NCBI RefSeq assembly: GCF_058153355.1 | Contig: NZ_CM177019.1 | Reading direction: 5' to 3' (one strand) | DNA: 64,000 bases | In this document: piece by piece, positions 6,540 through 31,328 of the stretch | Layout: every line of letters begins with the position of its first letter | Position numbering within the stretch: position 1 is the first letter of the stretch | Translations under genes and position numbers: made by a program | The notes under the pieces: model-generated | What the model saw: the letters and a program-made list of their open reading frames with translations, nothing else | Database searches by the model: none | What the model was told of the DNA's origin: nothing

Positions 6540-6760
6540 CGTCTCACCCTTGCTCGCGAGGTCCCAGTTTAACTTTAGACGCAGTTTTGCGAACCAGGTA
6601 GTTTTGCCCGTTTTTTGTTCATCTATAGGGTGATTTTATTTTTGCCAGGCGATTTTGAGTGATCGTACTCACGAATTCTCATTTTTTTGCAAGAGTTCAA
6701 AGAAAGTTAAACGCAGGCAATGTATGTTACGCGTTTTAAAGGGAAGTGTGGTTTGCGGGT

Positions 6761-10314: not shown

Positions 10315-12306
10315 TTACTCAAGCAAGGTTAATAATTGTTCGCAAAGCAAAACGCAGTTATTCATTGCTTCTCCCCGTGCCTCGCCTTCTGTATTACGAA
10401 ATTGTCCCAACACATGTGCCAGCCGATAAAAACCCATCGCGGTGAGTTCATTGACCAGCAACTCTGACTGACTAATGGCACTCTGTTCCTGATAGCGCCA
10501 GCCATTATGGAGCAGTTGAATAAGCAACGCCTGACAGCGCATCAGTAACTGATGAGTGGTAGACGGTACAGGCAGAACGCTGGCAGAAGGTAGCGGTGCC
10601 ACAGGCGCAGTTTCTGCGTCCAGCGCCCAGGCGCGGGTTTTTGTCATCATCACCCGTGGTTCCAGTGTCAATTGCCCCTCTACAAAACTGACAAAGCCAG
10701 AAACCAGACTCACGGGGTCGTCTGTTTGTTGTAACAGAGCTGCCATGCGTTCAACGGCAAAAGGAGAACAGGCAGATGCCGGAAGGGATAACGTCAGCAC
10801 ATTATCGTCACCTTCGCCACTGATTACCTGCGCATCCAGTGTCTGCCGACTGCTGTCCCAACCGAGTGAAATGCACTCTTCTACTGGCAGAATAAATAAG
10901 TTATCGACCTGGTTAAGCTGTCGTATGGCGGCTGGCGGACGTTGGCGTAAATATTCCCGCAAAGCCACAATGCCCGGCTGGCGCAGTGGTGCGCTCAACA
11001 TTTGCCAGGCATCAGGCGACAGCGGAACAACACTGCTTAAGCGGTTGCGGGTAGCTAATAGCAACTCGCCATCAGCACTGCGTTTTGCTGCTTGTGAAAC
11101 AATTTGCCCACCCGCCAGCGCGCCAGCCTGAAAACTAAACAGCCGCCGTTTTGCCGCTGGAGAGTTATCCTGTTCACTTCTCGGCCAACTGCGCGAAAGA
11201 TGCAAAATACTGCCGGTGTCGGGATCGGTGAACCAGATGCGTAAACCATACCGCTCATTATCCTGCCAGCAACGCATACCTAGTGACACCAGCCGCAAAT
11301 GATCAAGCTTTGCTTCGCCAGCAATGCCTGCGCCAATGACCGTGCGCCACGGTATGGGCGGTACTTCACCGACACTGTCACGTCGCGCCATCTCTTGTGC
11401 ACTGTTCAAGCGACTGGTTAACGCCGCAAGCTGGCACAAGCATTTTCCGGCATGATAGTAGCTGGCGCGGGCGTGGAAGGCATCAACGCTTGCCCGTAGC
11501 TGTCGTAGTGATTCACTTACCCAACGCCAGTTGCAGCGTTCCGCCGCTTGCTGCGCGCGGCTGAAAGCGGCCTCGTAGTGGATTGACGGTTGGCTGATGC
11601 CTCCCAGCCATAATGCCTGACTTAATTGCTGAACATATTGACGACATGCTTTACCTTCGTCGCTGGAAAACGGATCGTCAGATGATGTGACGTGTTCACT
11701 GTGCATCTGCCAGATCAAATGAGTAAATTCTGCTTGTTGATTTTTGGCCTCGACGAAGGCCTGCACAGCCAGTGCTACGTGTTCACACAGCGTTCCTTCA
11801 ATACAATCACAACGGGCGAAACGAATGCTGCTGCGGGAATAAAAACGCACATCGCTCATCGGTAAGCGGGCAGAGGGAATTTCGCCCGGCGTGCAGAACA
11901 ACTCAATGGTGATGCCTTTAGCGACCAGCGCCTGCGCGCGTTTGCGCGTGGTATTGGGCAGGGTAGCCAGTTCTTCCTGCCAGATTGCCGGATCCCACTC
12001 TTCTTCTTTTTCCGTAGGCTGGGCGGTGGCACAAAGTCGTTGATAACTTAACACCAGCATCACGCGATGACGGCACATGCCGCTGGCCCCGCAGCTGCAT
12101 TGAGCCTCTTTCAGTGCCTGACTGTTCGCCAGCCGGGTACGGACACCGTCACTGAACGTGGCGATTAAAGCGCCGTTCTCATGGCAGATTTCCGGGACAT
12201 TGCCATTTTCCAGTTCCTTAAGGCTGCGCTTCACAAAACCAGCATTGCTTAACGCCGTCAGGGCCTGCGGTGTCAGTTCTAATAATTCCGGACGTAGTGA
12301 ATTCAT
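10315..12306 (-). CDS. yehQ: SWIM zinc-finger protein YehQ
   Basis: Start taken at MNSLRPELL (ATGA overlap with yehP stop); two CxC-x(n)-CxH signatures (CSCGASGMCRH and CDCIEGTLCEH). Confidence 0.75.
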   Translation of the reverse strand: MNSLRPELLELTPQALTALSNAGFVKRSLKELENGNVPEICHENGALIATFSDGVRTRLANSQALKEAQCSCGASGMCRHRVMLVLSYQRLCATAQPTEKEEEWDPAIWQEELATLPNTTRKRAQALVAKGITIELFCTPGEIPSARLPMSDVRFYSRSSIRFARCDCIEGTLCEHVALAVQAFVEAKNQQAEFTHLIWQMHSEHVTSSDDPFSSDEGKACRQYVQQLSQALWLGGISQPSIHYEAAFSRAQQAAERCNWRWVSESLRQLRASVDAFHARASYYHAGKCLCQLAALTSRLNSAQEMARRDSVGEVPPIPWRTVIGAGIAGEAKLDHLRLVSLGMRCWQDNERYGLRIWFTDPDTGSILHLSRSWPRSEQDNSPAAKRRLFSFQAGALAGGQIVSQAAKRSADGELLLATRNRLSSVVPLSPDAWQMLSAPLRQPGIVALREYLRQRPPAAIRQLNQVDNLFILPVEECISLGWDSSRQTLDAQVISGEGDDNVLTLSLPASACSPFAVERMAALLQQTDDPVSLVSGFVSFVEGQLTLEPRVMMTKTRAWALDAETAPVAPLPSASVLPVPSTTHQLLMRCQALLIQLLHNGWRYQEQSAISQSELLVNELTAMGFYRLAHVLGQFRNTEGEARGEAMNNCVLLCEQLLTLLE

Positions 12307-13439
12307 GACTGAAGATTCTCCGCAAGCCAGGTAGCCAGTTCGCCCGGCGTCATTGCGGCTATTTGTGCGCCGACATTTACCAGCGCCTGGGCTGTATCGC
12401 GGTCGTAGCAAGGTGTTGCGGTGCTATCGAGCGCTGCCAGTCCCAGCACTTTGATGCCGCTCTGGACACACTTTTTCACCTGATGCGTCAGCAATGATGA
12501 TGAACCCCCTTCATAAAAATCGCTCACGAGGATGATGACGCTTTTCGCTGGTTGTTCAATAAGTTGCCGACCATATTCCACGGCGCTGGCGATATTGGTC
12601 CCGCCATCCAGCTGTACTTTCATTAATAACTCTACCGGATCGGCAACGTCTGCCGTGAGATCGACGACGCTTGTGTCAAAAGCGACCAGATGGGTGCGGA
12701 TACCGGGTAACTGCCATAAACAGGCCGCCATCACCGCTGAGTGGATCACCGAATCGACCATTGAGCCGCTTTGATCAACCAGTAACACCAGCTGCCATTG
12801 TTCGCTATGGCGTTTAATTCGGCTGTTAAAGCGGGGGGATTCGATATACAACTTGCCGTGTTGCGGGTGCCAGTGTTGCAGGTTGGCGCGCAGAGTACTT
12901 TTGAAATCGAAATTACGTGCCAGTGGAATAAATGAGCGGCGACGGCGATCGCGGACACCTGAAAAAGCCTGACGAACTTCCTTTGCCAGTCGCGCCATAA
13001 TTTCTTCAACAACCTGGCGCACTATCCGGCGGGCGGCAGCCAGCACTTCGGGATTCATCAGATGTTTGGTGTGCAAAACGGCGCGTAGCAGGCTTTCAGA
13101 AGGCTGCATACGCTCCAGCACGTCGAGATTCGTCACCACATCTTCAATGCCGTAGCGCAGTACGGCATCGCTTTCCAGCCGCTCAATCACCCGTTGCGGA
13201 AATAGTGTGTGAATACTGTTGATCCACTCAGGGGTGGTGAGATTTGAGTCACCTAATCCACCGGAGCGTTCACCACGCTGGAGCCGTTCAGGATCGCGCC
13301 CATACAGCCACTCCAGCGCGTGGTCTATCTGCCGGGCATTGTCATCCAGCCCACAAAGCGTCGTTTCTGCCGCTTCGCCAAGAATTAATCGCCAGCGTTG
13401 TAGCTCACGAGTGGTCAGAAGATCGTTCAGTTCAGACAT
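12303..13439 (-). CDS. yehP: von Willebrand factor A (VWA) domain protein YehP
   Basis: 378 aa from MSELNDLL; MIDAS-like motif DQSGSM. Confidence 0.8.
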   Translation of the reverse strand: MSELNDLLTTRELQRWRLILGEAAETTLCGLDDNARQIDHALEWLYGRDPERLQRGERSGGLGDSNLTTPEWINSIHTLFPQRVIERLESDAVLRYGIEDVVTNLDVLERMQPSESLLRAVLHTKHLMNPEVLAAARRIVRQVVEEIMARLAKEVRQAFSGVRDRRRRSFIPLARNFDFKSTLRANLQHWHPQHGKLYIESPRFNSRIKRHSEQWQLVLLVDQSGSMVDSVIHSAVMAACLWQLPGIRTHLVAFDTSVVDLTADVADPVELLMKVQLDGGTNIASAVEYGRQLIEQPAKSVIILVSDFYEGGSSSLLTHQVKKCVQSGIKVLGLAALDSTATPCYDRDTAQALVNVGAQIAAMTPGELATWLAENLQS

Positions 13440-15711
13440 GGAAAACTCCCCAGTGTTGCAGTGATGCCAGTGCCTGCTGTTCGAGTTGTTGATGATGTGC
13501 AATGGCTTGCGGTGGACAATGCAACGGCATTTGCAGCGCTGAAACGGGAAGCTGTGCGAGCTGGTAATGCTCAAGCACCTGATGCGCCAGCGTCCCGCGT
13601 TCTCGTGGTGGTAGCCAGGCCATCGCCGCGCGTAAATCGGGCAGGGCGTTAATAAAATCGTCGTCACTCAGTTGATTTAAATGACTACTGAAACCGGCGA
13701 TAAATGCCGGCTGACAGGCCAGTTGATGGCGGGCCAGCGCCAGCAAACCGTGCAGCGCCTCGCCAGATTGTGCCGGGGATAATTGTGCCAGCATCGTCAG
13801 CGCCGCTTCGGCACTGGCGTTGGGATGTTCCAGACGCATCAGCGCGCCAAGGGCCGCACCGCGATCCAGCGCTGGGGCATGAATCGCCTGACTGCGACGT
13901 TCCAGTAAGGCTACCGCCGCAGAAAGCGAAACGCCGGGTAAATTAACGCCGCTATTTAGATCGCGCAGGATATGGCAAAGCGCCTGCCAGCTATGCAGGT
14001 GAGCGTGAAACTCCTTCTCATCCGGCCTGCCGTTGGATTCACATAGCCACAGTGTGCGATCGATAGCCGCGTATAACGTCGTCTGTAATATCTGCGCGCC
14101 TTGCATACCGCTGATTTCATCGAGCTGCCACAAGGCGTAAAGCACTTCCAGCGCCTGGCCCATTTCGGCAAACTGATTTTCCTTGGCGATTAATAATGTG
14201 AGTTGTTCCAGTAATTGCTGACTGAAGGACGCCAGACCCGCTAACGCGGCCTGGCTAAGACATGTGGTGATGCCGCTGATTCCACCCGCGTCCAGCATAT
14301 CGGCTTCTAATTTATTGCGTGCGGCCTCCTGGAGTGTGGCACCAAAGCAGGCGGCTTCAATCAATGCCGCATGTTGGCTAAGTGGCTGGGTTAATGTCCA
14401 GCGTTCTTCACCGTTGCCCGCCAGCGTCAGTGTACTTCCTTGCTCGCGCACAATGCCGGGAATCTCCAGTATTACCAACTGATGTAGCACCTGACTTTGC
14501 GCCAGTCCATCGGGGGTAAAGCGATTTAAGGTAAGCTCCGCCGGAAGAGAGATTCCGGTACGTTCCAGTTCGTAGGTGACATCTTTTGGCAGAGGTGGCT
14601 GTGGCGTCGAGGGGGCAAGTTTACCGAATCCGTCACCTGCTAATGTGTCTATCAACGTTACCAGTATCGGATCGGTATCGGGATGAATAACGTCGCGATA
14701 GCTCCACGGCAACGGCGCATTCAAGGCTTCTTTAATCAGCGAGCCTGCTATGGCATCCAGCCAGTCAGTGCGTAACGGTAGTGTATGACCGCGCAACTGT
14801 GCCAGCGCCATCGCATGTAAATGAGCGGCAGCCATATCCGCGGTTGAAGCAGGCAATTTGTGCTGGCGCAAACGGGTAAGAACCGTTTTTAGTAGTTGTT
14901 CACCTGCCTGCTGCAAGCCCCACCGCCAGCACCAGTTTTGCCAGACCGGGGCAGGCATTCCTGAAAGGTATCCTGCCAGCACATCAAGGCGCTTTTCACT
15001 GTATGGCGTGAGATAGCAACCTGTAACGGCATCATCCTGTGAGAGCAATTCTGGCTTGTTAATTTCTTGCGGGCATTCGCGCCACATTTTTGCCAGTGCC
15101 GGAGCGTGCCAGCCTCCGCAGACGACTAATACGTCGCCATTATTTTGCTGCATCGCCCATGCAATCCAGCGGGCCATAAAGGCTTCGCGCTGACGATTGA
15201 GTGCATCGCCGGAGGCGTCGCCCCGCAGTTGTGCAAAATAGTGCGCCAGTGCAGAGGGTAATATAGTTTGCTGGCTTTCATCTTCGAACAAGTGATCCCA
15301 CAAGGTGTCGCTGTTATCCATGCGGGTGGCACGCAGCAGAAAGGCCTGGCTTTCCTCTTGCATATCAGGCGAATCATCCTCTTCTTCACTTTGTGCCCAG
15401 CAAGGCAAATCGATGAAGTAAGTTTGTGCCTGAATACGACGTGCGGCTTGTAGCGCCTGCCACTCCGGCGAAAATTCAGCAAATGGCGTCCAGGCACCAC
15501 GCCCGGGGGCCGCACCGTCCTGATACTGGCAATAACTGTAAATAGCTACCGGAAGCTGGTGGGCTAACAACAGTTCGTCTACCCGGTCATTAAAATCAGC
15601 CGGGCCTTCAATCAACACGTATCGTGGCCGCTGGCTTTCGATTAACGATTTCACCAGCCGGGCGCAGGCCGGACTATGATGCCGGATGCCGACAATTAAC
15701 GGCTCGCTCAT
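13432..15711 (-). CDS. yehM: Large uncharacterized protein YehM
   Basis: 759 aa from MSEPLIVGIRHH; 8-bp overlap with yehP start; no motif I recognise. Confidence 0.8.
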   Translation of the reverse strand: MSEPLIVGIRHHSPACARLVKSLIESQRPRYVLIEGPADFNDRVDELLLAHQLPVAIYSYCQYQDGAAPGRGAWTPFAEFSPEWQALQAARRIQAQTYFIDLPCWAQSEEEDDSPDMQEESQAFLLRATRMDNSDTLWDHLFEDESQQTILPSALAHYFAQLRGDASGDALNRQREAFMARWIAWAMQQNNGDVLVVCGGWHAPALAKMWRECPQEINKPELLSQDDAVTGCYLTPYSEKRLDVLAGYLSGMPAPVWQNWCWRWGLQQAGEQLLKTVLTRLRQHKLPASTADMAAAHLHAMALAQLRGHTLPLRTDWLDAIAGSLIKEALNAPLPWSYRDVIHPDTDPILVTLIDTLAGDGFGKLAPSTPQPPLPKDVTYELERTGISLPAELTLNRFTPDGLAQSQVLHQLVILEIPGIVREQGSTLTLAGNGEERWTLTQPLSQHAALIEAACFGATLQEAARNKLEADMLDAGGISGITTCLSQAALAGLASFSQQLLEQLTLLIAKENQFAEMGQALEVLYALWQLDEISGMQGAQILQTTLYAAIDRTLWLCESNGRPDEKEFHAHLHSWQALCHILRDLNSGVNLPGVSLSAAVALLERRSQAIHAPALDRGAALGALMRLEHPNASAEAALTMLAQLSPAQSGEALHGLLALARHQLACQPAFIAGFSSHLNQLSDDDFINALPDLRAAMAWLPPRERGTLAHQVLEHYQLAQLPVSALQMPLHCPPQAIAHHQQLEQQALASLQHWGVFHV

Positions 15712-15721
15712 GCATCTTTCC

Positions 15722-16810
15722 TCACGGCAGGCGGTGGCGAGCTTGATAATAAGCCTGCCAGTGAGCTTCTTTATGTGTAGCGACACGTTGTTCGAAGTAA
15801 CGGCGCAGACGTGCGCGATCTTCTTCGTTATCTTTGACGATGGTTCCGGCAATACAGTCCACCAGGTCGGCTGGCTCCCCCGCGCGATTCGCTAAAAACC
15901 AGGCGCGGACGCCCACGGCGTGGGCCACGTTAACGGCTTCAGCGGTGGACATAATCGCTGTAAGGGTATCCATTGACGTTTTCTTTTCGCCGTTGGCACG
16001 CAGATCGCGGAAGGTGCGTACCAGTAACTCAAGTACCGCGTCAGGCACTTTATGCGGAATACCGCTATGGGCCAACAAACGCGCCGAAGCACTGGCGACC
16101 AGTTCCAGCTCCTGGGCGAAATCCATAATCGGAAAAACCGTTTCAAAATCGAATCGGCGTTTTAGTGCCGCGCTCATTTCATTAACGCCGCGATCGCGGG
16201 TATTGGCGGTGACAATAATATTAAAGCCTTCCCGCGCATAGAGCTGACTGGCTTCACCAGTGAGTTCCGGCACCGTCATAACCCTGTCAGAAAGCATACC
16301 TAACAGACAGTCTTGTACTTCCAGTGGTGTACGCGTTATCTCTTCAAAACGGACAATTTTGCCGTCGCGCATTCCCTGGTAGAGCGGGGCAGGGACCAGC
16401 GCTTCCGTTGACGGACCATGATTAATAAGCAGGGCGTAGTTCCAGCCGTACTTGATTTGATCTTCGGTGGTAGATGCGCCGCCCTGGATAGTTAACCCAG
16501 CATCGCCGCTAATAGCGGTTGCCAGTAATTCAGACAGGAGAGATTTTGCGGTGCCAGGTTCCCCCACCAACATCAAACCGCGCCCGGTAGCAAGAGTGAC
16601 TAACATGCGTTCGACAGCGGAGGGACTAATCACGACTTTACGGCTGATATTTTGCGCGCTATCGCCAAGAATAAAAGAACGGGCCGCAGGCAAACTTAAC
16701 TGCCAACCGGGCGGGCAAGGTGCGTTATCATTTTGCTTTAATTTTGCCAGTTCATCGGCGTATAACACAGCGGCAGGCGGACGCTGCAGATGATTATTCT
16801 GCGGTGACAT
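15722..16810 (-). CDS. yehL: MoxR-type AAA+ ATPase YehL
   Basis: 362 aa; Walker A GEPGTAKS; first gene of the yehLMPQ array. Confidence 0.85.
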   Translation of the reverse strand: MSPQNNHLQRPPAAVLYADELAKLKQNDNAPCPPGWQLSLPAARSFILGDSAQNISRKVVISPSAVERMLVTLATGRGLMLVGEPGTAKSLLSELLATAISGDAGLTIQGGASTTEDQIKYGWNYALLINHGPSTEALVPAPLYQGMRDGKIVRFEEITRTPLEVQDCLLGMLSDRVMTVPELTGEASQLYAREGFNIIVTANTRDRGVNEMSAALKRRFDFETVFPIMDFAQELELVASASARLLAHSGIPHKVPDAVLELLVRTFRDLRANGEKKTSMDTLTAIMSTAEAVNVAHAVGVRAWFLANRAGEPADLVDCIAGTIVKDNEEDRARLRRYFEQRVATHKEAHWQAYYQARHRLP

Positions 16811-16921
16811 ATATTCATCCCTGAAATGTATTAATCAAATAAACGATATTTTACGCGCAATAAATGTTTGGCGCATTAGTTGTTTGAGCGGAAAATATCT
16901 GGAAAGCAGATCACAGTAAAT

Positions 16922-17002
16922 AAAAAAACCTGCTGGTGAGGCAGGTTCTTTTATTTACTACTTTGACGATAACTTGCTGATTGTGCAACATTTCGTACCA
17001 AC
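16922..17002 (-). ncRNA. orzO: Candidate antisense sRNA antitoxin (OrzO-like), about 80 nt
   Basis: Minus-strand TTGCAA-N17-TATAAT promoter (-10 at 17009..17014), 5' 18 nt complementary to the zorO leader, intrinsic terminator hairpin ~16929..16947 plus T-run. Confidence 0.55.
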
Positions 17003-17008
17003 GAATGA

Positions 17009-17059
17009 ATTATAACCATATCCACATCCCGTTGCAATTCACTAAGCGAGATTTATAAT
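17009..17059. promoter_or_regulatory. Back-to-back divergent sigma70 promoters sharing one palindromic -35 hexamer
   Basis: TTGCAA at 17032..17037 serves as -35 for TATAAT at 17054..17059 (plus strand) and for TATAAT on the minus strand at 17009..17014. Confidence 0.5.
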
Positions 17060-17240
17060 CGTGCCCGTTGGGAGGTTGTGCCGGATTGAACCAATTTCAA
17101 GTCCTGGCTGCCGGACGGGGGGTGCCGCAGGTGGTGCCCTGATCCGGAGAGCAACGTTTCGTACCAACATACGTAAACCAGTATCGACAGGCAGTGTAAG
17201 GGTAAGGTGCTGGTGTTGCGCTCCTTAATAAGGAGAGCGG

Positions 17241-17330
17241 ATGGACACGCTGACACAAAAGTCAACCGTGCTCATTGCCGTACTGGAGTTATTAGTGGCT
17301 CTGTTGCGGTTGATTGATTTGTTGAAGTAA
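17241..17330 (+). CDS. zorO: Small hydrophobic type I toxin (29 aa, MDTLTQKSTVLIAVLELLVALLRLIDLLK), ZorO-like
   Basis: Below the ORF-track cutoff; AAGGAGA Shine-Dalgarno held inside palindrome gcgctccttaataaggagagcg; ~175-nt leader; terminator follows. Confidence 0.6.
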   Translation: MDTLTQKSTVLIAVLELLVALLRLIDLLK

Positions 17331-17353
17331 CGGGCAAATTGAAACGCATCTAA

Positions 17354-17380
17354 GGGGGAATACCGTTTCCCCCTTTAATA
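17354..17380 (+). terminator. Intrinsic terminator of the zorO transcript
   Basis: Hairpin gggggaa-taccg-tttccccc followed by a T-rich tract on the plus strand. Confidence 0.6.
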
Positions 17381-17383
17381 AAG

Positions 17384-17704
17384 CTATTTTTCTATTTGTT
17401 GGATGAATATATTTTGTAGTTCACGATTAAAAATTGCTATTACAGTTTTAGGTGATTCACCTCGTAATTTACGCTCATCAATAAATTCATCTCTTATATA
17501 AATCAACGCATCATTTATTAGCGGGTCGACATCTTCTCGATCACGTTGATGAAATGTTGGATGTAGCCGGAATCGCTCCAACCGGTAGACGGAACCAGTA
17601 AATAATTCAGAGCATTTATGGATCTCAAGTCTGAAGGAAAACGGATCTTCAGGTACAGGGACTTCATAATCATAAGTAGCGACCAGCTCTTTTTGCACGA
17701 TCAT
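17384..17704 (-). CDS. yehK: Uncharacterized protein YehK
   Basis: 106 aa ORF about 60 bp downstream of yehI on the same strand. Confidence 0.75.
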   Translation of the reverse strand: MIVQKELVATYDYEVPVPEDPFSFRLEIHKCSELFTGSVYRLERFRLHPTFHQRDREDVDPLINDALIYIRDEFIDERKLRGESPKTVIAIFNRELQNIFIQQIEK

Positions 17705-17764
17705 CGCTTTTCCCGGTGGTAAGTCGTGTTGATAACGGGCAGTCGCATCACTGCCCGCTGTGTT

Positions 17765-20700
17765 TTAATGGAAAATGACGTCAGGTGCGCTTAACGCTTC
17801 ACTCAAATCAAACGTATCGAGTTCGGCAAAAGTGACAGATTTATTGTCACGGTACACTCGAAGAGAACGGAAGCTCATTAGCGCTTTGCTATCAGCACTG
17901 TAGTGGTTAAAACCGGGTGAAAACTTAAGGACCAGCCGATACTCGCCCAGGTCATAGACACATGCGTCCTCAAAACCTGACTCCCAGCCTTTGTATCGCA
18001 TTCCCATAAGTTGCCCAACGGTTGCGGATTTACCTTCCCAGCGAGTCAGGCTGTTACTGGCTGACTCGTCAGGTGTGAGCAGCACTGTGCGCCGCATCAA
18101 CTGGCGAAAAGGCGGCATAATTTCGTAATCGGCAAAAACCTGTGCAAATTCACTGCGCATTTCTGCTGTCATTTCTAACGGGTGGGCAATGCCAATCAGA
18201 GCATCCGCAGGCAGGTCAATTGGCTCATCTTGTGCGTTGCAGAACTCCCCCTCAGCGGCCACGCGAAAGGCGTTGAGTAAACGACGCGGTTCATTTGCCG
18301 GATAAACCGCCCATATTAATCGCTGAGTAACCAGGCGAGTAAAGGGATGATTAACAAACAGAGAATGAAAATCTGCCAGCGACCAGCGTCGGGTGGTGCG
18401 TAGGGCAGTTTCAAGACGCGGGAGCAGGTTTTTGCTCACCTGAGTGGCATCTTTTTTTAGCCCTTTTAGTCGGGCCAGTGCCTCGGGTGCTTTCAGCTGA
18501 TCGTCATCGGCGCGCAACCGGGGAACACTTTTCTGGCGAACGTTTTGCTGATCAAAGATAACCGGGTTGAGGTTTTCATCGAAGCGAACGGTAAACTGCC
18601 GGGGTCCAAAATCAAATATCAACGCCTGCGGATCATCCAGGCCCAGTGTTGGGACTAATCTGTCCGCTAACTCTTCCTGGCTTAGTCCACGATTTTCTGC
18701 GACCACCTGAAGAAATTCCGCCGCGTTATCACGTAAGGGACGGGATTTCGCCCGTTGCGATATATGATGCAGCTGTATCAGCGCCATATCATTATTCATC
18801 AGGGTAAGTATGTTCAGGCCACTGACGGCGCGGGCAGATTTGCCTTCCTGTGGCCAGGCGAGGATCTGTGTTGTCAGATCCCGAGCCGTGCTTTCGTCAC
18901 CAAAGAGACTTAACGCCAAAAAAGCCCAGTTGTCTTTTGCGGGGGCGCCAGCCTGTTGCCAGGCGGTGAAGAGATCCCAGGCAAAAGCGGCCAGCGTTTG
19001 TGGCTGGCAGAACGTTTTCAGTTGTTCCAGCCCACAATAAAAACGTCCGCCCTGGGTAAAGCGCAGCATTTCGCCGATAATTTCCAGAGCATCATCAGTA
19101 ACATGTTGATTATTCGTGATAATTCTCGGTCTGGACCACATTGTCGGATGCCAGAAATCAGGGGCTTTGGGAATGCGTGCCGGGTAAATGTCCATTGGAC
19201 CCTGTTTAAGTAATTGCTCCAGGGCAGGCCATACATCTGTATGCTGCCAGCGGTTTGCCACGGTTTGCAGTAATTCGCCATGCCCTTGTTCATACAGTAA
19301 ACGCAGAGCGCTGAGTGCCGCTTCGCTGTTATCGCCAGACCTGGCAAAGATTAATGGGATCAGCGCCGTAGCCGTATGCTCCGGCCATTGTAAAATCCAC
19401 TGGCGAGCCAGATTACGCTGGCCCGCAAAACGATGCCAGACGCGGGCAACGGGCAGCGCCAGTTCTGTTGCGCCAAAATGAATCAGCAGCGGAAATATCT
19501 CTTTGGGATGTCGGGCAAAGGCGGTGATTAATCCGGGCAAAGCATCGGTACCCAGGACACTTAACAGATATTCTACCCCGGTGTAATGAAAATCAGCCGC
19601 GACAATTTGTTGCCAGCACGATACCGCCATTTCGCGCGGCATTTGCGCGATAAGATACAGGTTCCATACTCCCCAACGCTTTTCATCAGTGTAATTAAAT
19701 TTGCGTTGGAAAGTTCGCCACCCCTCCATCAACGCAACACTATCTTGTGCCAGTAATGCGCTGGCGGCCTCTTCCCGGTAGTGTTTATTTTCATTCTGTT
19801 TTGCCTGATAATTGAGCAATCTTCCTACTGAAGTATGTGTCTCTAGTTGATCGGTATCCAGAGCATCCAATTGTCCTTTGAGAATAAACTCATTAAACTT
19901 CCACCTGTGATCTTCAAAACCTAATTCCCGCAAGAAGGTATCCGCCCCTCTGTTAGCAAGACGTTCGTCAAAAGACATGGCGCTAAAATGGTCAATTGCA
20001 GTTTGCTGTTCCGGCGTCCAGTGTTTATTCGGCGACCTGTACGCTTGCGGTACAAGCGTAAGTTCAGGTAGCGAAAAGTGAGTTATGGAAGCCTTTTTCC
20101 TGCCACGCCACGGTGGTGAAACGAGGATTTCAGGCAGACTACTGTTATCGGTGCTATCAATAACCGGTTTTGGCGAAGCCGATAAATAACTATTCACCAC
20201 TGCCCGGGCTTGAGTACTTAACGACGGGATCACCTCTTCTGCCAGTTGTGGCTGCGATGCCATCAGCGTTTGTAACAGCGTACGCCAGTATTCATCACGT
20301 GCTTTTTGCTGTGCAGGCAGCTTTTTGTCTTCGATGATAGGATAACCAGGGCGCGTAGGGGGGGCTTTTAACGCCAGTAGTTCTGCCAGTGCGGCGAGCG
20401 TCGCATGGGGAAAGTTTTTACTGTATTTAGCCACACGCTGCAGGCTGGGTTTGTTTTTATCGGCAACTAACAGCAAGATGCGAATAACTTGCGGATGGTT
20501 AATTTGTACCAGCAGGCTACCGCAATCTTCTTTATGGGCATACATCGCGAGGCGTGGAACGGCTGCAATTCCTTGTTCGCGCAAAAGGGCGGCGCAGGCC
20601 GCGTAGCCGAAGTGGTTTTCATGCGACATGTAGCTGGCTTCGCGATCGCTAAATATATCCTGGCTCCAGTAGCGTTCGAGTTTTCTCACCGCTCTGGGGT

Positions 20701-21421
20701 CATTAGCAACAACTTTTAACCACTCCTTAGAATGAAAATGAGTCCGCGGGCATTCAAGGCCTACCAACTCATTGGCGATTTCTGGTTTCTCCGGGAGGAT
20801 GAGTGCAATAAAAGGACGGCGAACTTGGGGTAGTCCTGGCAGTGCGGCAATGAGTTTGTCGGCGCAACGCTGCCAGCAGCTTTCCTCTGCCAGAGAGAGA
20901 GGCTTACGCAGTCGGAGATCGAATTCGTTATAGGTTTCTGAGCGATAACCATAACCATAGCCATAGTCCTCCTTCTGATACTGCAATGTTACTACCAGAG
21001 GATCGTTCTCATAACACCGCGCAATAAACTGGCGTGCAATCACCACCTCAGTCGCATATTCCAGCCCCTCTTGTTGGACGATTTCGTCGAGCAACTGTTG
21101 GCTGTCATTTTGCGCGATACAGGCTAGCGCCGCCATTGTCCGGGCCGGAATTGAGGGTTTGTGCTCGCCGATCAAGTTGATGGCTTGCGTAATGGCCGAC
21201 TGCCACTCCAGTGAAAAATTTTCATAACGCCAGACAATGTTTTTTTTCTTCTCAGCAATGTGTAGCAATTTATCACCCAGTGTCTGGATGAGGCTTTCAG
21301 TGATAACAGGCACCGGTTCGCCCGGCCAATTGCGATGGCTGAGTGGTGTTTTGCCTTTTTTATATTTCAGTTCCAGTTGGGCGTTATCCGCCAGCCACGG
21401 TAATTCCTTGTCCATGCTCAT
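17765..21421 (-). CDS. yehI: Large DUF4132 protein YehI (no WGR domain)
   Basis: 1218 aa; C-terminal ~500 aa homologous to the two upstream paralogs. Confidence 0.85.
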   Translation of the reverse strand: MSMDKELPWLADNAQLELKYKKGKTPLSHRNWPGEPVPVITESLIQTLGDKLLHIAEKKKNIVWRYENFSLEWQSAITQAINLIGEHKPSIPARTMAALACIAQNDSQQLLDEIVQQEGLEYATEVVIARQFIARCYENDPLVVTLQYQKEDYGYGYGYRSETYNEFDLRLRKPLSLAEESCWQRCADKLIAALPGLPQVRRPFIALILPEKPEIANELVGLECPRTHFHSKEWLKVVANDPRAVRKLERYWSQDIFSDREASYMSHENHFGYAACAALLREQGIAAVPRLAMYAHKEDCGSLLVQINHPQVIRILLLVADKNKPSLQRVAKYSKNFPHATLAALAELLALKAPPTRPGYPIIEDKKLPAQQKARDEYWRTLLQTLMASQPQLAEEVIPSLSTQARAVVNSYLSASPKPVIDSTDNSSLPEILVSPPWRGRKKASITHFSLPELTLVPQAYRSPNKHWTPEQQTAIDHFSAMSFDERLANRGADTFLRELGFEDHRWKFNEFILKGQLDALDTDQLETHTSVGRLLNYQAKQNENKHYREEAASALLAQDSVALMEGWRTFQRKFNYTDEKRWGVWNLYLIAQMPREMAVSCWQQIVAADFHYTGVEYLLSVLGTDALPGLITAFARHPKEIFPLLIHFGATELALPVARVWHRFAGQRNLARQWILQWPEHTATALIPLIFARSGDNSEAALSALRLLYEQGHGELLQTVANRWQHTDVWPALEQLLKQGPMDIYPARIPKAPDFWHPTMWSRPRIITNNQHVTDDALEIIGEMLRFTQGGRFYCGLEQLKTFCQPQTLAAFAWDLFTAWQQAGAPAKDNWAFLALSLFGDESTARDLTTQILAWPQEGKSARAVSGLNILTLMNNDMALIQLHHISQRAKSRPLRDNAAEFLQVVAENRGLSQEELADRLVPTLGLDDPQALIFDFGPRQFTVRFDENLNPVIFDQQNVRQKSVPRLRADDDQLKAPEALARLKGLKKDATQVSKNLLPRLETALRTTRRWSLADFHSLFVNHPFTRLVTQRLIWAVYPANEPRRLLNAFRVAAEGEFCNAQDEPIDLPADALIGIAHPLEMTAEMRSEFAQVFADYEIMPPFRQLMRRTVLLTPDESASNSLTRWEGKSATVGQLMGMRYKGWESGFEDACVYDLGEYRLVLKFSPGFNHYSADSKALMSFRSLRVYRDNKSVTFAELDTFDLSEALSAPDVIFH

Positions 21422-21424
21422 TCC

Positions 21425-24400
21425 TTATTCAAACAGGGCTTCGATGTCGTTAATTAACTCGCTAGCGGTGATGTCATCGAGTGCGGAGAACTGCGCTTCC
21501 TGTGTTGAATTAATCCCCCAGCCATAGCTTTCTGCTTTGCCTTCCCATAGCCACAGCTTGCTTAAGAGTTGCTCGGCACTGAGTTCGGCTGGCGACATAC
21601 CAACTGCAAATCCTTCATCGATTTCCATGATTAATGACCAGCGGCCCAGAGGTTTGATCATCCAGCCGATCCAGCCACCGTCCTGCGGTTCACCACGCAT
21701 CCAGCCTTTATTCGCCAGCCCCATTACCCGACCGCTCGGGCATTTTCTGCCTGCCCAGCGGGTCAATTCGCTGGCATTGCGCTCGGTTTCTGTCAGGGCG
21801 TAACTGTTACGGTCGAGCTGGCGGAACGGCGGTAGCAGTTCGTAGTCGGCAAAAAGCTGACCAAAGGCGGCAGCATCCGTGGGTGATATTTCCAGAACGT
21901 GAGGAATGCCAACAGAGATATCGCCTTCCGGCAGGGTGAAAAGATCATCGTCAGCGGTGCTGTAGCTGTTATCTTCCGCCACACGGAAGCACGCCAGTAA
22001 CTGGTTGTCTGCGCTATAAATGCCCCAAATCAGACGGCGGGTTAAGTGGCAGACCAGCGGATGCTCAACCAGAAAGAGCTGAAAGTTTTCTGGCGACCAG
22101 CGGCGGCGCAGGCACATGGCGGATTCCAGCCTTGCCACCTGCTGGGCGGCAACGGTACGCGCATCTTTTTTCAGCAGTTTGTAGCGGTTAACTGCATCGT
22201 TCGCTTGAGTTTCATCATCGCTTTTGTTCGGTTTAGGCAAGTCTTTCAGGCGGCTGCCGGAAGCATCACGCACAAACGGTTTTAAGGTTTCATCAAAGCT
22301 GACGGTGAACTGCCGTGGCCCGAAATCCAGCAGCAGCGAACCGTTATCATCCAGACCGAGATCCGGTGCTAACCGGTCTTCAAGCTCCGCCACCGTGAGT
22401 TCGCGGCTCTCGGCAATGTCGGCAATTTTTTCTTTTGCCCGCTCCTGTAATGCTTTGAATTTCAGTTTCTGGGCGATGCCGTTAAGCTGCATCAGGGCGA
22501 TATCACTACCGATAGCAGCGAGAATATCCAGCCCGACGGTGGCGCGTTTATGCTGGGATTCACCAGGCCAGGCGCGAATCAAAGGCGTCAGTTTGCGGGC
22601 GGTATCATCGTTGCCGAGAACACCTAACGCAGTGAACGCCCAGCTTTCTTTCGACGGTGCGCCAGCGGTCTGCCAGGCGGTAAACAGATCCCAGGCAAAT
22701 TCAGCCAGTGAGTCGGCGGTACAGGCATCTTTCACCTGCAATAACCCCGCATACAGAGCCTCTTCCTGAGGGAAGCGGAGCATTTCACCGAGGTGGAGGA
22801 GGGCGTTATCTGGCAGTGATTGGGCGTTTGCTTTTAATACCGGGCGTGTCCAGAGCGATGGCTGATAAAAGGCCGGAAGTGTCGGGATTTTAGTCGGGTG
22901 ATTATCTAAGGGATCGAGCGCAAGTAGAGCGTTCACCGCATCGGTTACTTCCGGCTGGTTATAACGCTGGGCGATTTCTTGCAGTAATGACGGATAACCA
23001 CTTTCAATCAACATACGTAAGGCGGCGCGGGCGTTATCCTGGGCTTCACCAGCTTTGCCGAGTGCCGCAGGCAACAGGCCGATAATGGCATGTTCCGGAT
23101 ATTTCAGCAGCCAGGTGCGGGCGTCTTGTCGTAGAGTTTTGAGTTTGTTAAAGGCGCGGGCGACGGCAGGAGCCAGTTCCGTTGCGGCAAAATAATTAGC
23201 AACCGCAAAACCTTCTTGAGGGTAGCGTGAAAACGAGTGTAGAAAACCACTCATACCTGCCAGTCGCAAATAAAGCATGACAGGTTTTACCGCGGTATGC
23301 GGCTCTTTGCTGAGAAACTCCCATAGTTTAATCGCTGTTTGCATAGGTAAAAAGGGAAGTGAGTTGAGATGCCACTCCCCCTGATACGGTGCATGGTGGG
23401 CTTTAAACATTTGGATGAGTGTAGCGAAGTCCTCACGTTCCCATGCGTCAATTGCCGAGTCAGAAGCGCCGATATATTTATATGTGTCAAAATCCCAGCG
23501 GCGATACCCCAGCGAGTAAAGGAAATCTTTAGCACCTTCACCTGGCTTATGCGATTCCCAGTCCCAATGAGTTTGAAACTCTTTTGCTTCTGTGTCGGTT
23601 ATTGTGCATATGGATTTGAGTTTGAGCGGTGCTAAATCCAACACCGGAATCGTCGATTTTTTCTTTTTCGAAAGCCAGGGAGGTAAGACTAATACGGCTG
23701 GCAGTAGAGCGGCGCAGGCATGGTTTGACGGTTGTATCAGTTGTTGCTGGCATGATTTCAGCACTTCAACTGCGGCTGTCGAGAGCCAGGGAGTGACCTG
23801 TTCTGCCAGTGCCGGTTGCGAGATAAGCATCGTCATTAGCATAATGCGCCAAGTATTCTCTTCTTTTTGCGCAAGAAGTTCCGCCAGTGCCGCCAGTGCT
23901 GCGTGTGGGAACGCAGCGCAAGCTTTCGTCATCCGATCGTGACAGCGTTTAGTTTGCCCGGCTACACGTATGAGCAGTGTTAATGCGAACGGATGATTGA
24001 TATGACGCAATACATCTGCGCAGTAGTCACTTGCGGCATAGGGAGCAAATCTGGGCAGGGCTGCAACACCTTGCTCCTGTAATACGGTGGCTGACAATAT
24101 CGCACCACAATAGTAATCATCAAAAATGGCATATGGCTCGTGATATTTTTCTAATGAGGCAAGAATGTGCTCATCAGTCGCCACTATTTTTAGCCACTCA
24201 AGCGAGGGTAATTTTTTTTTCCCCAGTAGACGCTGGGCAATTTCATGTGCAATTTCTGGTTTTTCGGGTAATAACAAAGCAATTAATGGTTGCCGCCATT
24301 CTGGAATATGTGGAATTGCGGCAATAAGTTTTTGTGCACATTTTTGCCAGAGAGACTCTTCCGCCAGTGATAAATGTTTCCGTAGGCGTAATTCAAAACT

Positions 24401-25213
24401 GGAATATTGCTGCAGGTTATCAGGTGCAATACCAGACGGCAGAATAATAATGGTATTATTCGCATAATCCCATTCAATATCAATCTGTTGAAGATGTATT
24501 ACTACATCAGTAGCATATTCCAGGCCACCTTCCTGAACGAGCTGATCCATAACATCCTCACGCTCTTTATATCTCGTGCACTTCAGTTCAAGTGCCGTGA
24601 GTACAGCCATTACTGGTGATGGTAACTGTGTTGTTTTCAGGCAGTCGATCTGACTGAGCGCCTGGGAGATGGCGTTTTGCCATTCTAAAGAACAGGCGCT
24701 GAAGTCAAATGTGGCTGTTTTATTATCCCGTTGCAACACGCTACAGGCTAAGCGGCGTAACTGGGTCAATTCGTCTGCTTGCTGAACAGGAACTCCGGGA
24801 AAGCGGCGATGGCTTAACGTGGTGTGTACAACTTCGGGCGGAAAAACGACAGCAATATCTTTCGCCAGCCACGGTAAAACATCATCTGTATTTTTGTCAG
24901 CCACACGGGCTTCTGCTACGCAAAAGGGTTGTTCCTGAATAATGGTGGATAAGGCCGCTACCTTGAGAGAATCCGTTACCGTTTGGGAAGGTTGCAAAGA
25001 ATTATCCTTCGCTTGCCCCACATACCCCTTCTTCACCTTCTCCGCAATCAGCCTCAGTTCCGCTTTTTCCGCCGCCGCAGCATCAGCAAAGCTTTTTACC
25101 TGGCTTTGCCCGTTGGTACTGACTTTGCCCCAACTAATATGCAGCTCGTTTCCCTGTTGCTCCACTGCCCAGAATTTATGTGATTTTTCGTCCTGATAAA
25201 TATAGGTTTTCAT
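21425..25213 (-). CDS. WGR domain + DUF4132 protein, MolR-family paralog (middle copy)
   Basis: 1262 aa; N-terminal WGR signature KFWAVEQQGNELHISWGKVSTNGQ; stop 3 bp from the yehI start. Confidence 0.8.
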   Translation of the reverse strand: MKTYIYQDEKSHKFWAVEQQGNELHISWGKVSTNGQSQVKSFADAAAAEKAELRLIAEKVKKGYVGQAKDNSLQPSQTVTDSLKVAALSTIIQEQPFCVAEARVADKNTDDVLPWLAKDIAVVFPPEVVHTTLSHRRFPGVPVQQADELTQLRRLACSVLQRDNKTATFDFSACSLEWQNAISQALSQIDCLKTTQLPSPVMAVLTALELKCTRYKEREDVMDQLVQEGGLEYATDVVIHLQQIDIEWDYANNTIIILPSGIAPDNLQQYSSFELRLRKHLSLAEESLWQKCAQKLIAAIPHIPEWRQPLIALLLPEKPEIAHEIAQRLLGKKKLPSLEWLKIVATDEHILASLEKYHEPYAIFDDYYCGAILSATVLQEQGVAALPRFAPYAASDYCADVLRHINHPFALTLLIRVAGQTKRCHDRMTKACAAFPHAALAALAELLAQKEENTWRIMLMTMLISQPALAEQVTPWLSTAAVEVLKSCQQQLIQPSNHACAALLPAVLVLPPWLSKKKKSTIPVLDLAPLKLKSICTITDTEAKEFQTHWDWESHKPGEGAKDFLYSLGYRRWDFDTYKYIGASDSAIDAWEREDFATLIQMFKAHHAPYQGEWHLNSLPFLPMQTAIKLWEFLSKEPHTAVKPVMLYLRLAGMSGFLHSFSRYPQEGFAVANYFAATELAPAVARAFNKLKTLRQDARTWLLKYPEHAIIGLLPAALGKAGEAQDNARAALRMLIESGYPSLLQEIAQRYNQPEVTDAVNALLALDPLDNHPTKIPTLPAFYQPSLWTRPVLKANAQSLPDNALLHLGEMLRFPQEEALYAGLLQVKDACTADSLAEFAWDLFTAWQTAGAPSKESWAFTALGVLGNDDTARKLTPLIRAWPGESQHKRATVGLDILAAIGSDIALMQLNGIAQKLKFKALQERAKEKIADIAESRELTVAELEDRLAPDLGLDDNGSLLLDFGPRQFTVSFDETLKPFVRDASGSRLKDLPKPNKSDDETQANDAVNRYKLLKKDARTVAAQQVARLESAMCLRRRWSPENFQLFLVEHPLVCHLTRRLIWGIYSADNQLLACFRVAEDNSYSTADDDLFTLPEGDISVGIPHVLEISPTDAAAFGQLFADYELLPPFRQLDRNSYALTETERNASELTRWAGRKCPSGRVMGLANKGWMRGEPQDGGWIGWMIKPLGRWSLIMEIDEGFAVGMSPAELSAEQLLSKLWLWEGKAESYGWGINSTQEAQFSALDDITASELINDIEALFE

Positions 25214-25225
25214 TGCTAATTCCTT

Positions 25226-28200
25226 TTAATTAAACAGTGATTCAATGTCGTTAATCAGCTCGCTGGCGGTGATGTCGTCGAGTACGGAGAAAGTGGGTGA
25301 GGATTGCTTACCATAGCGATCATAAGGGGCGATGATTTTTACGCTTTCGACAGGCAGCAGGTCGCTATACCCCGTTTCGCCATAAATTAATGAAAAAGGT
25401 TCTGTTTCAAGTTCGAGAGCGCCATAAGGGGTAGATTTGCGCATCGCATAGACGCTGCCGCTTTCTTCCAGACGTTGCCAGCCTCTGCGTTCCAGCCCGA
25501 CAATGCGTCCGGCCTGGCAGAGACGTCCGTTCCAGCGTGACAATTCATGGACATTACGTTCGTTATCAGCAAGGTGGTAACTACCACGTTCGAGCTGTTG
25601 GAAGGGGGGAAGCAGTTCGTAATCAGCGTAAATTTGCCTGAATGCAGCGACAGATTCAGGGGGGATTTCCAGCATATGCGGAATACCGATGTTTCCTGCT
25701 GGTAGCGTGAATAGCTCATCCTGCATATCGCTGTAAGTGCTGTCTTCTGCGACCCGGAAGCAGGCAATCAGCGTGTTTTCCTCAGTATATACTCCCCATA
25801 ACAGCCGTCGGGTTAAGTGACGTACCAGCGGATGCTCCACCAGAAACAGGCGGAACTGTTCTGCCGTCCAGCGTCTGCGCTGGCACATAGCCTGCTCCAG
25901 ACGATCAATCTGCTGACTGGCAATGGCGCGCACATCTTTCTTCAATTGTTTGAAGAGGTTAACGGCGTCAGTTGCCAGTGTTTTATCATCGCTCTGATTT
26001 GGTTTGGGTAAATCTTTCAGGACTTTGCCGTTTGCATCGCGCACTACAGGTTTTAAGGTTTCGTCAAAACCAACGGTGAATTGACGTGGGCCGAAATCCA
26101 GTATCAGCGAGCCACTGCTATCAAGCCCTAAATCTGGAGCCAGGCGGTCTTCCAGTTCAGCCATTGTCAGTCCGCGATTTTCGGCGACCATATTGATTTT
26201 GTCGCGGGCGTGTTCCTGCAATGCTTTGAATTTAATTTTTTGTGCAATGCCATTAAGCAGCATCAGCGCAATATCGCTACCGATACTGGCTAACACATCC
26301 AGCCCAGAAACCGCACGTTTATGCTGGGATTCACCCGGCCAGACCCGGATAAGCGGGGTTAGTTTACGCGCGGTGTCGTCATTGCCTAAAATCCCCAGCG
26401 AGGTAAATGCCCAGTTTTCTTTTGCGGGCGCGCCAGATTCCATCCATGCCGTGTAGAGATCCCAGCCAAAGTCAGCCAGTGATTCCCGGGTGAAGGTCTC
26501 TTTGATGATCGCCAGCCCAGCGTAGGAGGTAATGTCGCGTGGAAAGCTCAATATTGTGCCCAGGTGGCGCATAGCGTCATCGGGCAGAGGCAGGTTGTTA
26601 CTTTTAAGCCGTGGTCTGCGCCATAAGGTGAACTGATAAAAGCCGGGCAGTGGGGCGATTTTTGCAGGATATTCTTCCAGTGGATCGCTATCGAACAATG
26701 TTGCCAGCGCAGCTAAAACATCAGGTTGATTATATCCCCGGGCGATTTCCTCAATCGTTTCTCGCTGGTTTAAATTCACCAGCAGGCGAAGCGCCTGGCG
26801 GGCACAATCACGATCTTTTCCTTTTTTGCCCAGGGCCACAGGAAGTAGCCCGGCGGCGGCATGGTGTGGGAAGTTAGCCAGCCATTTTCGGGCATCTTCA
26901 TAAGACATTTTTTTCTGTAATCGCTGCGCCATCGGTAATGCTAATTCGCTGACGCCCAGGAAAAGGGTGAATATCCACAACTGTTGTGGCTTACGTTGCA
27001 GACATTTCATAAACGCAGGAATGGCCGCATCACCAAAAATCGCCAGAATTTCTCTCTCGCCGGAGAATTGCTCTTCATTAATTATTTGATTGAGAAAAGA
27101 AATAGCATGCTGAGTGGGTAGGAAGCAGAGCGCGTACAACTGCCAGTGTCTGCTTCCTTTATTATGGTATTGCGCAAACTCTGCTTTCAGCGCGGGGAAA
27201 TCGAAACGTAACAGGGCCTCAACTGCGCTTTGTGGCATTATTTTTTTTTCGTATTGTTCTTCTCCGGTTCTGCTCCATTCCTTAAACCCCAGTCGCCAAA
27301 GGATTTGCTGTTCTGGCGTTAAAGGGATGAAAGACGTTTCCCAGCTTTCCTTTTCAATTAGTGGCAGATCGGTAAATAAGGTTTGCTGTGATGCCTGATA
27401 TTTCGCGATTTCACTGAATCTGGATATGTCAGTGTGACTGATTAACTCTGTAATTCCAGGTGTGATGTCAGTGACGGAAGGGATGGGAAGTACCGGTAAA
27501 TCAAATACGGGTATTACATTCTTTTTCTTATTTATTGCCCACGGTGGAGCGACAAGCAGTTCTGGCAACATATTCGCAGTGGCATACTCACATTCTTTAG
27601 CTACTGACTGAGGACGACATTCAGATAAGATGCCTGCCGCTTTAGCATTAACCCAGGGAATGACGTCGCGTACTAACTCTGGCGTGACGGTAACCAGTTT
27701 GACAAGCGCGTTGCGCCACTGTGCATCTTCATGTATTGCCAGCAAAGTAGCATAAGCGGCAATAGCCGCAGCGGGATGTTTTTGGCAGGCTTTGCTTAAG
27801 TATTCCAGGTGCTTTTTCTTGCCATTTACACCGAGGATCAGAATTTGAATCGCATCCGGGTGATTCGTTTTCCATAGCCATTTGACAAGATCTTCAGTCT
27901 CGCTGATGCGCTCGAAGAGATAAGTGGGATTGTCAGAATGCTCTTCCGTAAACTCAGTAAGTATCCGGCTTACACCGCGCCCCCCATTATTTGCCAGCAA
28001 CATTGCCAGATAAGCGCGAAAATCACGATACAACGGTGGGAAGTCGTATTTTTCTGCTGTAGTCAGAGCTATATCATCGGTTACTACCACTCTTAACCAG
28101 GTTATCGCCGGAACGTTTTGGTCTGCATAGCGTAGAGCCATAGCATTGGCAATATCCGGGCGTTCAGGGAGCAGTAACGCGGCAAAAGGTTGCCGTGCTG

Positions 28201-29023: not shown

Positions 29024-29122
29024 TCTGCATCCCTGTAATTTTATCCAGTTGAATGCAGATGCTACCAGTATTTATGCGGGTTAGAGAGAGACAAAATCGC
29101 AAGAAAACAACTTTAGGAATTT

Positions 29123-31197: not shown

Positions 31198-31328
31198 AGT
31201 AGGCATTACTTCTTAATAGTGAAAAGGGGTTAGATAGTACCAAATGGGAAAATGTTAAGTAAGTACTTCTCTATATTCTTCAGGTAAACTATCAGCTGAT
31301 GGTTTATCTATACAAAAAAGGAGTCGGG

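Follow-up and report, generated by a model that had tools for sequence, protein, structure and literature searches.

The yehLMPQ genes and WGR-DUF4132 make up a conserved five-gene unit with a predicted TIKI-type hydrolase subunit

The yehLMPQ genes of Escherichia, a 6.5-kb block on the minus strand at 10315..16810 of the 64-kb stretch of DNA analysed here (contig NZ_CM177019.1; hereafter the window), belong to a unit of five genes. Together with a gene for a WGR-DUF4132 protein, which lies upstream of them, they have been co-inherited across at least three phyla, Proteobacteria, Myxococcota and Actinomycetota. The unit encodes a MoxR-class AAA+ ATPase (YehL), a DUF5682 protein (YehM), a CoxE-type VWA protein (YehP), a SWIM zinc-finger protein (YehQ) and the WGR-DUF4132 protein itself. 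What might such a machine do? We tentatively favour, at a probability of roughly 40%, a nucleic-acid-associated hydrolase complex that is gated by its AAA+/VWA pair and operates in the context of DNA damage. Previous annotation already covers the gene array and its MoxR/VWA/SWIM composition, and the YehL subfamily had been named; new, as far as we have found, are the definition of the system as five genes, the assignment of YehM, from its predicted fold, to the TIKI superfamily of hydrolases, and the existence of YehM-YehP fusions.

Existing annotation describes the parts. RefSeq labels the E. coli products, in order, as an ATP-binding protein (yehL), a DUF5682 protein (yehM), a VWA protein (yehP) and a SWIM zinc-finger protein, and K-12 carries the labels "putative AAA(+) MoxR family ATPase YehL", "VWA domain-containing protein YehP" and "SWIM zinc finger domains-containing protein YehQ". 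YehL has given its name to one of the MoxR subfamilies; just two MoxR proteins are ascribed to K-12, RavA, which has long been studied, and YehL, which has not (PMC3893208). An earlier note on this DNA, made from the sequence alone, had supposed that no function was on record for the array; our literature search agrees, having found no paper that assigns yehLMPQ a function, with gene-name queries swamped by author names, and DUF5682 is mentioned in none of the papers it found.

Five genes retained together across bacteria

In the window, yehL (16810..15722; 362 aa, YehL subfamily), yehM (15711..13432; 759 aa), yehP (13439..12303; 378 aa) and yehQ (12306..10315; 663 aa) follow one another on the minus strand. 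The stop codon of yehL, TGA, is followed by GGAAAGATGC and then by the ATG of yehM, a 10-bp gap; yehM and yehP overlap by 8 bp, ATGTCTGA; and yehP and yehQ overlap by the 4 bp ATGA. Upstream on the same strand lie three tandem DUF4132 paralogues (17765..29023) that are 32-44% identical to one another: the first (29023..25226; 1265 aa), known as molR or yehF in K-12, and the second (25213..21425; 1262 aa) both carry a WGR domain, and the third (21421..17765; 1218 aa) is without one.

How general is this arrangement? Of about 100,000 genomes that each represent a species, 328 yielded relatives of YehM in a profile search with the patterns used, and the best 80 loci were analysed with 10-kb flanks. 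These 80 loci span Enterobacterales, Burkholderiales, Lysobacterales, Neisseriales, Myxococcota and Actinomycetota. When the window proteins were compared with all open reading frames (ORFs), about 60 of the loci showed DUF4132 (one to four copies), yehL, yehM, yehP and yehQ in this order on a single strand; with family hidden Markov models, all five genes were found in 70, and six of the ten exceptions are truncated by a contig end, leaving four longer loci in which one or more of the five genes is absent. DUF4132 adjoins yehL in nearly all taxa outside Escherichia, and in several genera it is duplicated as two to four tandem paralogues. The order can change: Burkholderia places DUF4132 after yehQ, and an Agrobacterium vitis plasmid runs AAA, DUF5682, DUF4132, VWA, SWIM, each with all five genes kept, and a Streptomyces linear plasmid carries all five in the usual order. 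Retention of the set despite permuted order is good evidence that the genes are functionally linked. Spacing, measured from estimated gene starts, is tight as well, with gaps at or below zero between yehP and yehQ in 65 of 76 loci and between yehM and yehP in 63 of 77, gaps of at most 30 bp between yehL and yehM in 66 of 79, and a median of 53 bp between DUF4132 and yehL.

The tightly packed junctions described in the earlier note were thus borne out in the window and recur in other genomes. That note had proposed a four-component ATP-driven machine that possibly works with the WGR/DUF4132 proteins upstream. Co-conservation of the four genes across phyla and their close packing uphold the core of this proposal, the count of four does not survive, and the suspected partnership proved correct: DUF4132 makes a fifth component, which Escherichia has expanded.

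Clustering of the 1,493 other flanking ORFs in the 80 loci yielded no sixth conserved partner beyond within-genus synteny, and the synteny of the flanks is stable within genera. Two candidate neighbours were rejected: metG, which is adjacent in Enterobacteriaceae only, and a flanking "family" from 13 loci, which consists of generic ABC ATPases. Two loci from Betaproteobacteria MS502 isolates (L055 and L061) hold yehL and yehM about 850 bp apart, with YehP, YehQ and DUF4132 not found within the flanks examined, and may represent a degraded or rearranged system.

An ATPase-MIDAS pair, a predicted hydrolase and two candidate recognition subunits

YehL matches Pfam AAA_5 at 1.1e-33. Its Walker A (GEPGTAKS), Walker B-like (VRFEEITR), TANTRD and ALKRRF motifs are each at least 90% conserved in 80 orthologues, so that a MoxR-type AAA_5 ATPase is complete in its Walker A and B, its sensor-1 and its arginine motif, in keeping with the class that the earlier note had given it. 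AAA_5 outscores AAA_3, the family of MoxR proper, and the match to bpMoxR is marginal (0.0021); an NCBIfam scan of the region's proteins gave weak, sub-threshold matches only, to GvpN, MadB, McrB and cobaltochelatase. YehP, likewise called correctly as a VWA protein with a DQSGSM motif, matches Pfam VWA_CoxE at 2e-71 over 222 of 222 model positions, and VWA_2 at 5.8e-8. A helical N-terminal region precedes its VWA domain, which carries a complete metal-ion-dependent adhesion site (MIDAS; DQSGSM ... GGT ... DFxEGG) whose residues are at least 90% conserved among orthologues; a sequence search of the Protein Data Bank (PDB) gave no match for YehP.

These two proteins travel together. YehP is encoded beside YehL in 76 of the 80 loci, three of the four loci without it end at a contig edge, and its gene usually overlaps its neighbours. 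They are also the most constrained subunits: against actinomycete orthologues, identity of the window proteins is 65% for YehL and 60% for YehP, 38% for YehM, 36% for DUF4132 and 28% for YehQ, the fastest-evolving of the set.

The pairing resembles RavA-ViaA, CoxD-CoxE, NorQ-NorD and CbbQ-CbbO, in which a MoxR-class AAA+ gene likewise adjoins a VWA/MIDAS gene, and YehP belongs to the VWA family of CoxE itself. Unlike those pairs, the yeh system adds three obligatory subunits (DUF5682/TIKI-HEAT, SWIM and WGR-DUF4132). Most MoxR-VWA pairs of known function serve in enzyme maturation or metal insertion, and we considered whether the yeh proteins could be a chaperone of the CoxD-CoxE, NorQ-NorD or CbbQ-CbbO kind, maturing or inserting a metal cofactor into a metalloenzyme encoded elsewhere. 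The full-length match of YehP to the CoxE family would suit this explanation, as would the haem bound by ChaN, a relative in the TIKI fold to which we assign YehM below, and the name molR, given to the first DUF4132 gene for a molybdate-utilisation phenotype according to the title of a 1990 paper, hints at molybdoenzymes. We nonetheless think a chaperone of this kind improbable. Clients are normally encoded beside such pairs, and, unlike coxDE, norQD and cbbQO, the 80 yeh loci contain no conserved gene for a client enzyme; the WGR and SWIM domains point to recognition of nucleic acid or protein, away from metal handling; control by the SOS response, described below, fits poorly; and depletion of DdrO in Deinococcus left molybdate-metabolism genes unaltered.

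The best sequence match of YehL among solved structures in the PDB leads elsewhere, to the AAA modules of midasin (Rea1/Mdn1), at 2.7e-8. Midasin too combines AAA_5-type modules with a MIDAS domain, which it uses to grip its substrate and which the intact MIDAS of YehP parallels; it is, however, a single eukaryotic chain in which six AAA modules are fused within about 4,700-4,900 residues, in contrast to the 362-aa single-module YehL and its separate MIDAS subunit. The helical parts of YehM and DUF4132 moreover resemble symplekin, Integrator 4/7, Utp20 and Mak21, HEAT proteins of RNA processing and pre-ribosomes. One could picture the yeh system as remodelling a large ribonucleoprotein (the ribosome, for instance, or an RNA-processing complex) much as midasin does: the AAA+ ring and the MIDAS would pull a factor off a particle held by the HEAT subunits. 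We rate this very improbable, below even a metal-inserting chaperone: HEAT-repeat similarities are generic, the TIKI domain and SOS control would be left unexplained, and a core ribosome role is excluded because the system is absent from most bacteria (with the patterns used, relatives turned up in 328 of about 100,000) and can be deleted in E. coli.

The subunit that most changes the picture is YehM, in which the earlier note had recognised nothing. It is a DUF5682 protein (Pfam, 5.4e-96), a member of a family with 3,871 proteins at E<=1e-3 among 1.84 billion cluster representatives (about 3,900 clusters at 50% identity), and a PDB sequence search gave no match for it. In an AlphaFold2 model made from 32 diverse sequences (predicted local distance difference test score, pLDDT, 87.6; predicted template modelling score, pTM, 0.82), residues ~1-250 are predicted to form an alpha/beta domain of the TIKI/TraB/ChaN/Ere superfamily, with the parallel beta-sheet core seen in TraB, ChaN, HopBA1, PMT, RRSP and Ere, and residues ~255-759 a HEAT-like helical solenoid. 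Orthologues never vary at G8, R10, H11 and E35, and G199, G200 and H202 are at least 90% conserved if not invariant. In the predicted model H11, E35 and H202 stand directly after strands 5-9, 31-37 and 194-199, and the pattern and spacing of the motifs are like those of the E. coli TraB protein YbaP, which has LVGSIH, then IVEAD, then VGALH.

ChaN, HopBA1 and PMT are counted among the structures of the TIKI superfamily in work on RRSP, where active members are described as having conserved His and Glu at the parallel sheet's edge, with a basic residue close by (PMC6254334). The second Glu of the 2His/2Glu motif, as it occurs in RRSP, was not identified in YehM, nor is the first Glu evident, and a Pfam scan of YehM gave no TraB_PrgY_gumN match. 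The likeness of YehM to the TIKI/TraB superfamily is therefore one of modelled fold and motifs, with a conserved His-Glu-His set. Judging from the model, YehM likely contributes a TIKI-type hydrolase domain with catalytic function as well as a HEAT scaffold. It differs from the other TIKI/TraB/PrgY/ChaN/Ere proteins in that its domain continues into a HEAT solenoid of 500 residues and belongs to an AAA+/VWA system.

In several DUF5682 proteins of about 1,170-1,220 aa, YehM continues into a complete YehP. We traced such fusions (1,180-1,222 aa) in two independent contigs, at 8001-11543 of L088 and 3096-6764 of L089, which share the same neighbours: DUF4132, AAA_5, the fusion, and then a gene of the size of yehQ. 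These natural fusions suggest that YehM and YehP are physically coupled. L088 also holds a second tandem AAA_5-DUF5682 system with a HEAT_2 protein in front.

For YehQ, Pfam returned two weak SWIM matches (0.0036 and 0.24), with motifs CSC..CRH and CDC..CEH. SWIM is a zinc finger that binds nucleic acid or protein. Pfam detects SWIM at E<=0.1 in 24 of 28 YehQ orthologues, if at E<=0.001 in 4 of 28 only, and all 28 share the first signature (C70, C72, C78, H80) without exception; the call is credible because the domain is detected across orthologues and its first signature never varies. A double SWIM protein, as the earlier note had it, holds in full for that first finger and less strictly for the second (C166, C168, C174, H176), which is kept in 60-90% of orthologues. 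The C-terminal ~450 aa of YehQ have no recognised domain, and a PDB sequence search of YehQ was without a match.

In the DUF4132 proteins, Pfam finds WGR and DUF4132, and the N-terminus matches the WGR structure 2ra8 at 2.5e-15. Some 1,100 residues of helical repeats and DUF4132 module follow the WGR domain, and a model of the C-terminal part shows a HEAT-like repeat and an alpha/beta module with no enzyme match. Nearly all DUF4132 proteins that occur in single copy start with WGR, the DNA-break-sensing module of PARPs. Like PARP-type WGR sensors and MolR-like WGR proteins, they carry this domain at the N-terminus and are damage-inducible, through an SOS box in E. coli and also in Deinococcus; unlike the PARP-type sensors, they are without a PARP catalytic domain.

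Regulation and variation of the locus in Escherichia

One link to DNA damage lies in front of the first WGR-DUF4132 gene. A LexA (SOS) box, AACTGGATAAAATTACAGGG, lies on the minus strand at 29031..29050, 8 nt upstream of the ATG of this gene; it is identical upstream of yehF (formerly molR) in K-12 and is the sole site of such quality in the 64-kb window. The gene molR is included among those with a known SOS box (PMC6590174). Independently, in Deinococcus, mitomycin C induces a DUF4132 protein, DRA0166, and a WGR protein, DR2173, via DdrO/IrrE.

Between the DUF4132 array and yehL lies yehK (17384..17704, minus strand), a 106-aa ORF that occurred in only four of 81 loci, L001-L004, all of them from Escherichia, and that is probably not core to the system; family scans of yehK gave nothing beyond a near-identical PHROG. 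In the 573-bp spacer between yehK and yehL (16811..17383), yehK is followed by a terminator-like hairpin; the spacer also contains a zorO/orzO insertion and, on the minus strand at 17037..17009, the promoter-like site TTGCAA-17-TATAAT. The insertion comprises an ORF on the plus strand for a ZorO-like type I toxin of 29 aa (MDTLTQKSTVLIAVLELLVALLRLIDLLK; 17241-17330) and the OrzO-P antitoxin RNA on the minus strand (16922-16995; Rfam RF02083, 90.6 bits). The corresponding spacer of K-12 measures 306 bp and is without zorO/OrzO-P. An element, 'GTTGGTACGAAAYGTTGC', is repeated in the window's spacer at about 17000 and 17170. In K-12 hns/stpA mutants yehL and yehM are up-regulated, an H-NS site is intergenic, and H-NS reportedly binds the promoter region of yehL (PMC3686432).

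About 99% of complete E. coli genomes (5353 of 5426) carry a match to the block, at a single fixed chromosomal site in the metG-yehR interval. Most of these copies of yehLMPQ are 90-95% identical to that of the window (best 97.8%), against 95-99% for the flanking btsSR (6746-9162) and metG (29164-31206), so that yehLMPQ is roughly twice as divergent as its surroundings. The whole block is cleanly deleted in some E. coli strains and has also been lost in S. sonnei lineages, and sublineages of ST131 carry a transposon within the DUF4132 region. In K-12 MG1655 (L087; 2196474-2203911), yehF is a 274-aa WGR fragment, yehH a pseudogene, and yehI intact and without WGR; with its first two DUF4132 genes degraded, K-12 is probably without a fully functional fifth component.

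Divergence and clean loss of this kind bring to mind conflict with phages or mobile elements. The yeh proteins could form an anti-phage or anti-mobile-element MoxR-vWA system in which WGR-DUF4132 and the SWIM protein would sense the invader, the MoxR-VWA pair would set a threshold, and the TIKI-type peptidase of YehM would be the effector, cleaving a host or an invader protein. Kaur et al. (2020, eLife) described several vWA-MoxR ternary conflict systems, for which they propose an origin from CoxD-CoxE-type pairs; these systems share with the yeh system a MoxR-vWA core, a vWA protein with a CoxE-like helical N-terminal domain (YehP is CoxE-type), large additional components and a peptidase as a possible effector. 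The patchy phyletic spread, the copies on megaplasmids, and the fast evolution and tandem duplication of recognition-type subunits are all as one would expect of a conflict system, and so are SOS-inducibility, silencing by H-NS and an adjacent type I toxin-antitoxin pair. We regard an immune role as possible, with the odds clearly against it. Unlike the systems of Kaur et al. (2020), the yeh proteins contain no VMAP, STAND (including iSTAND), beta-propeller, effector-associated or classical toxin domain detectable with Pfam, and the engine subunits are unusually conserved. Nor does the location resemble a typical defence island, the site being fixed in E. coli and the flanks conserved within genera, with the flanks in other taxa unscreened for defence genes. 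All seven proteins of the region are without a match in PADLOC-DB v2, so that phage defence, one of the options of the earlier note, drew no support from that database.

Phage-labelled matches point the same way. Among the proteins encoded at 10315-25213, YehM, YehP, YehQ, YehK and DUF4132 match PHROGs 30700, 33984, 31592, 29006, 36295, 20839 and 36602 near-perfectly (E down to 0); these families probably represent E. coli host genes caught in over-extended prophage calls, and we do not take them as a sign of phage origin. A tblastn search of 50,697 phage records gave one match, L085 (MT835988.1, 'UNVERIFIED: Bacteriophage sp.', 14 kb), where distant homologues of YehL, YehM and YehP lie beside a PdaB-like polysaccharide deacetylase and a RarA-like ATPase. 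By its gene content this contig looks bacterial, and it may carry a three-gene variant of the system without recognisable YehQ or DUF4132.

A proposed nucleic-acid-associated machine

How might the five subunits work together? In the nucleic-acid-associated hydrolase complex that we favour, they would form a self-contained cytoplasmic machine with WGR-DUF4132 as its fifth subunit. A YehL hexamer and YehP as its MIDAS adaptor would act as a switch or remodeller powered by ATP, in the manner of midasin and of other MoxR-VWA pairs, with YehP docking on the YehM scaffold. WGR-DUF4132 and the SWIM protein YehQ would recognise the target, most likely a nucleic-acid-bound structure, and the TIKI-type site of YehM would provide the catalytic output, cutting a peptide or ester bond of the captured target. 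Constraint on YehL and YehP, set against faster evolution and duplication of the peripheral subunits, fits a recognition role for the latter. The most likely setting would be surveillance or clean-up, linked to DNA damage, of protein-nucleic-acid complexes.

Several observations weigh against this proposal. Comparison by hhalign of the YehM N-terminal domain with a YbaP/TraB profile, a shallow one of 9 sequences at least 65% identical, gave a probability of 0.9% and an E value of 0.06; with this comparison non-significant, we do not claim Pfam TraB membership for YehM, and the hydrolase call rests on the predicted fold and the positions of the motifs. Some TIKI-fold proteins, ChaN and PMT among them, are non-enzymes. 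WGR and SWIM domains can also mediate protein contacts, and structure matches of the DUF4132 C-terminal model are to helical repeats only. The regulatory argument is vulnerable as well. In a scan of the 80 loci for LexA boxes, a comparable site outside Escherichia appeared only in Klebsiella grimontii, in addition to one doubtful site in Variovorax, and with the box limited to Escherichia and Klebsiella the SOS link may be local; DRA0166 and DR2173 of Deinococcus need not belong to a complete five-gene system. Even in E. coli, terminator-like hairpins, yehK and the toxin-antitoxin insert part yehLMPQ from the SOS-controlled genes, and yehLMPQ has its own H-NS-silenced promoter region. Co-inheritance of the five genes is shown; the mechanism as a whole is inferred.

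A more specific version of the favoured complex deserves mention as a long shot. Here the machine would be induced by DNA damage: its WGR and SWIM domains would locate proteins that are stuck on, or crosslinked to, the damaged DNA, YehL-YehP would extract or unfold them, and the TIKI-type site of YehM would cut them. In eukaryotes, the proteases SPRTN and Wss1 are paired with the p97 ATPase for such work. By analogy, and at equally long odds, the yeh clean-up machine would be a functional counterpart of SPRTN/Wss1-p97 assembled from unrelated parts.

In conclusion, the yehLMPQ system is among the larger multi-subunit machines of E. coli left without an assigned function, and its real unit is five genes, so that experiments must include the WGR-DUF4132 gene. 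K-12 is a poor model for such work because its first two DUF4132 genes are degraded. The probable hydrolase site of YehM, as modelled, offers named residues for mutation (H11, E35 and H202). If the DNA-damage explanation is true, the system would represent a new bacterial route for dealing with protein-DNA lesions; if it serves in conflict instead, it would be an immune module of the MoxR-VWA kind that belongs to the core genome and has a TIKI protease as its effector.

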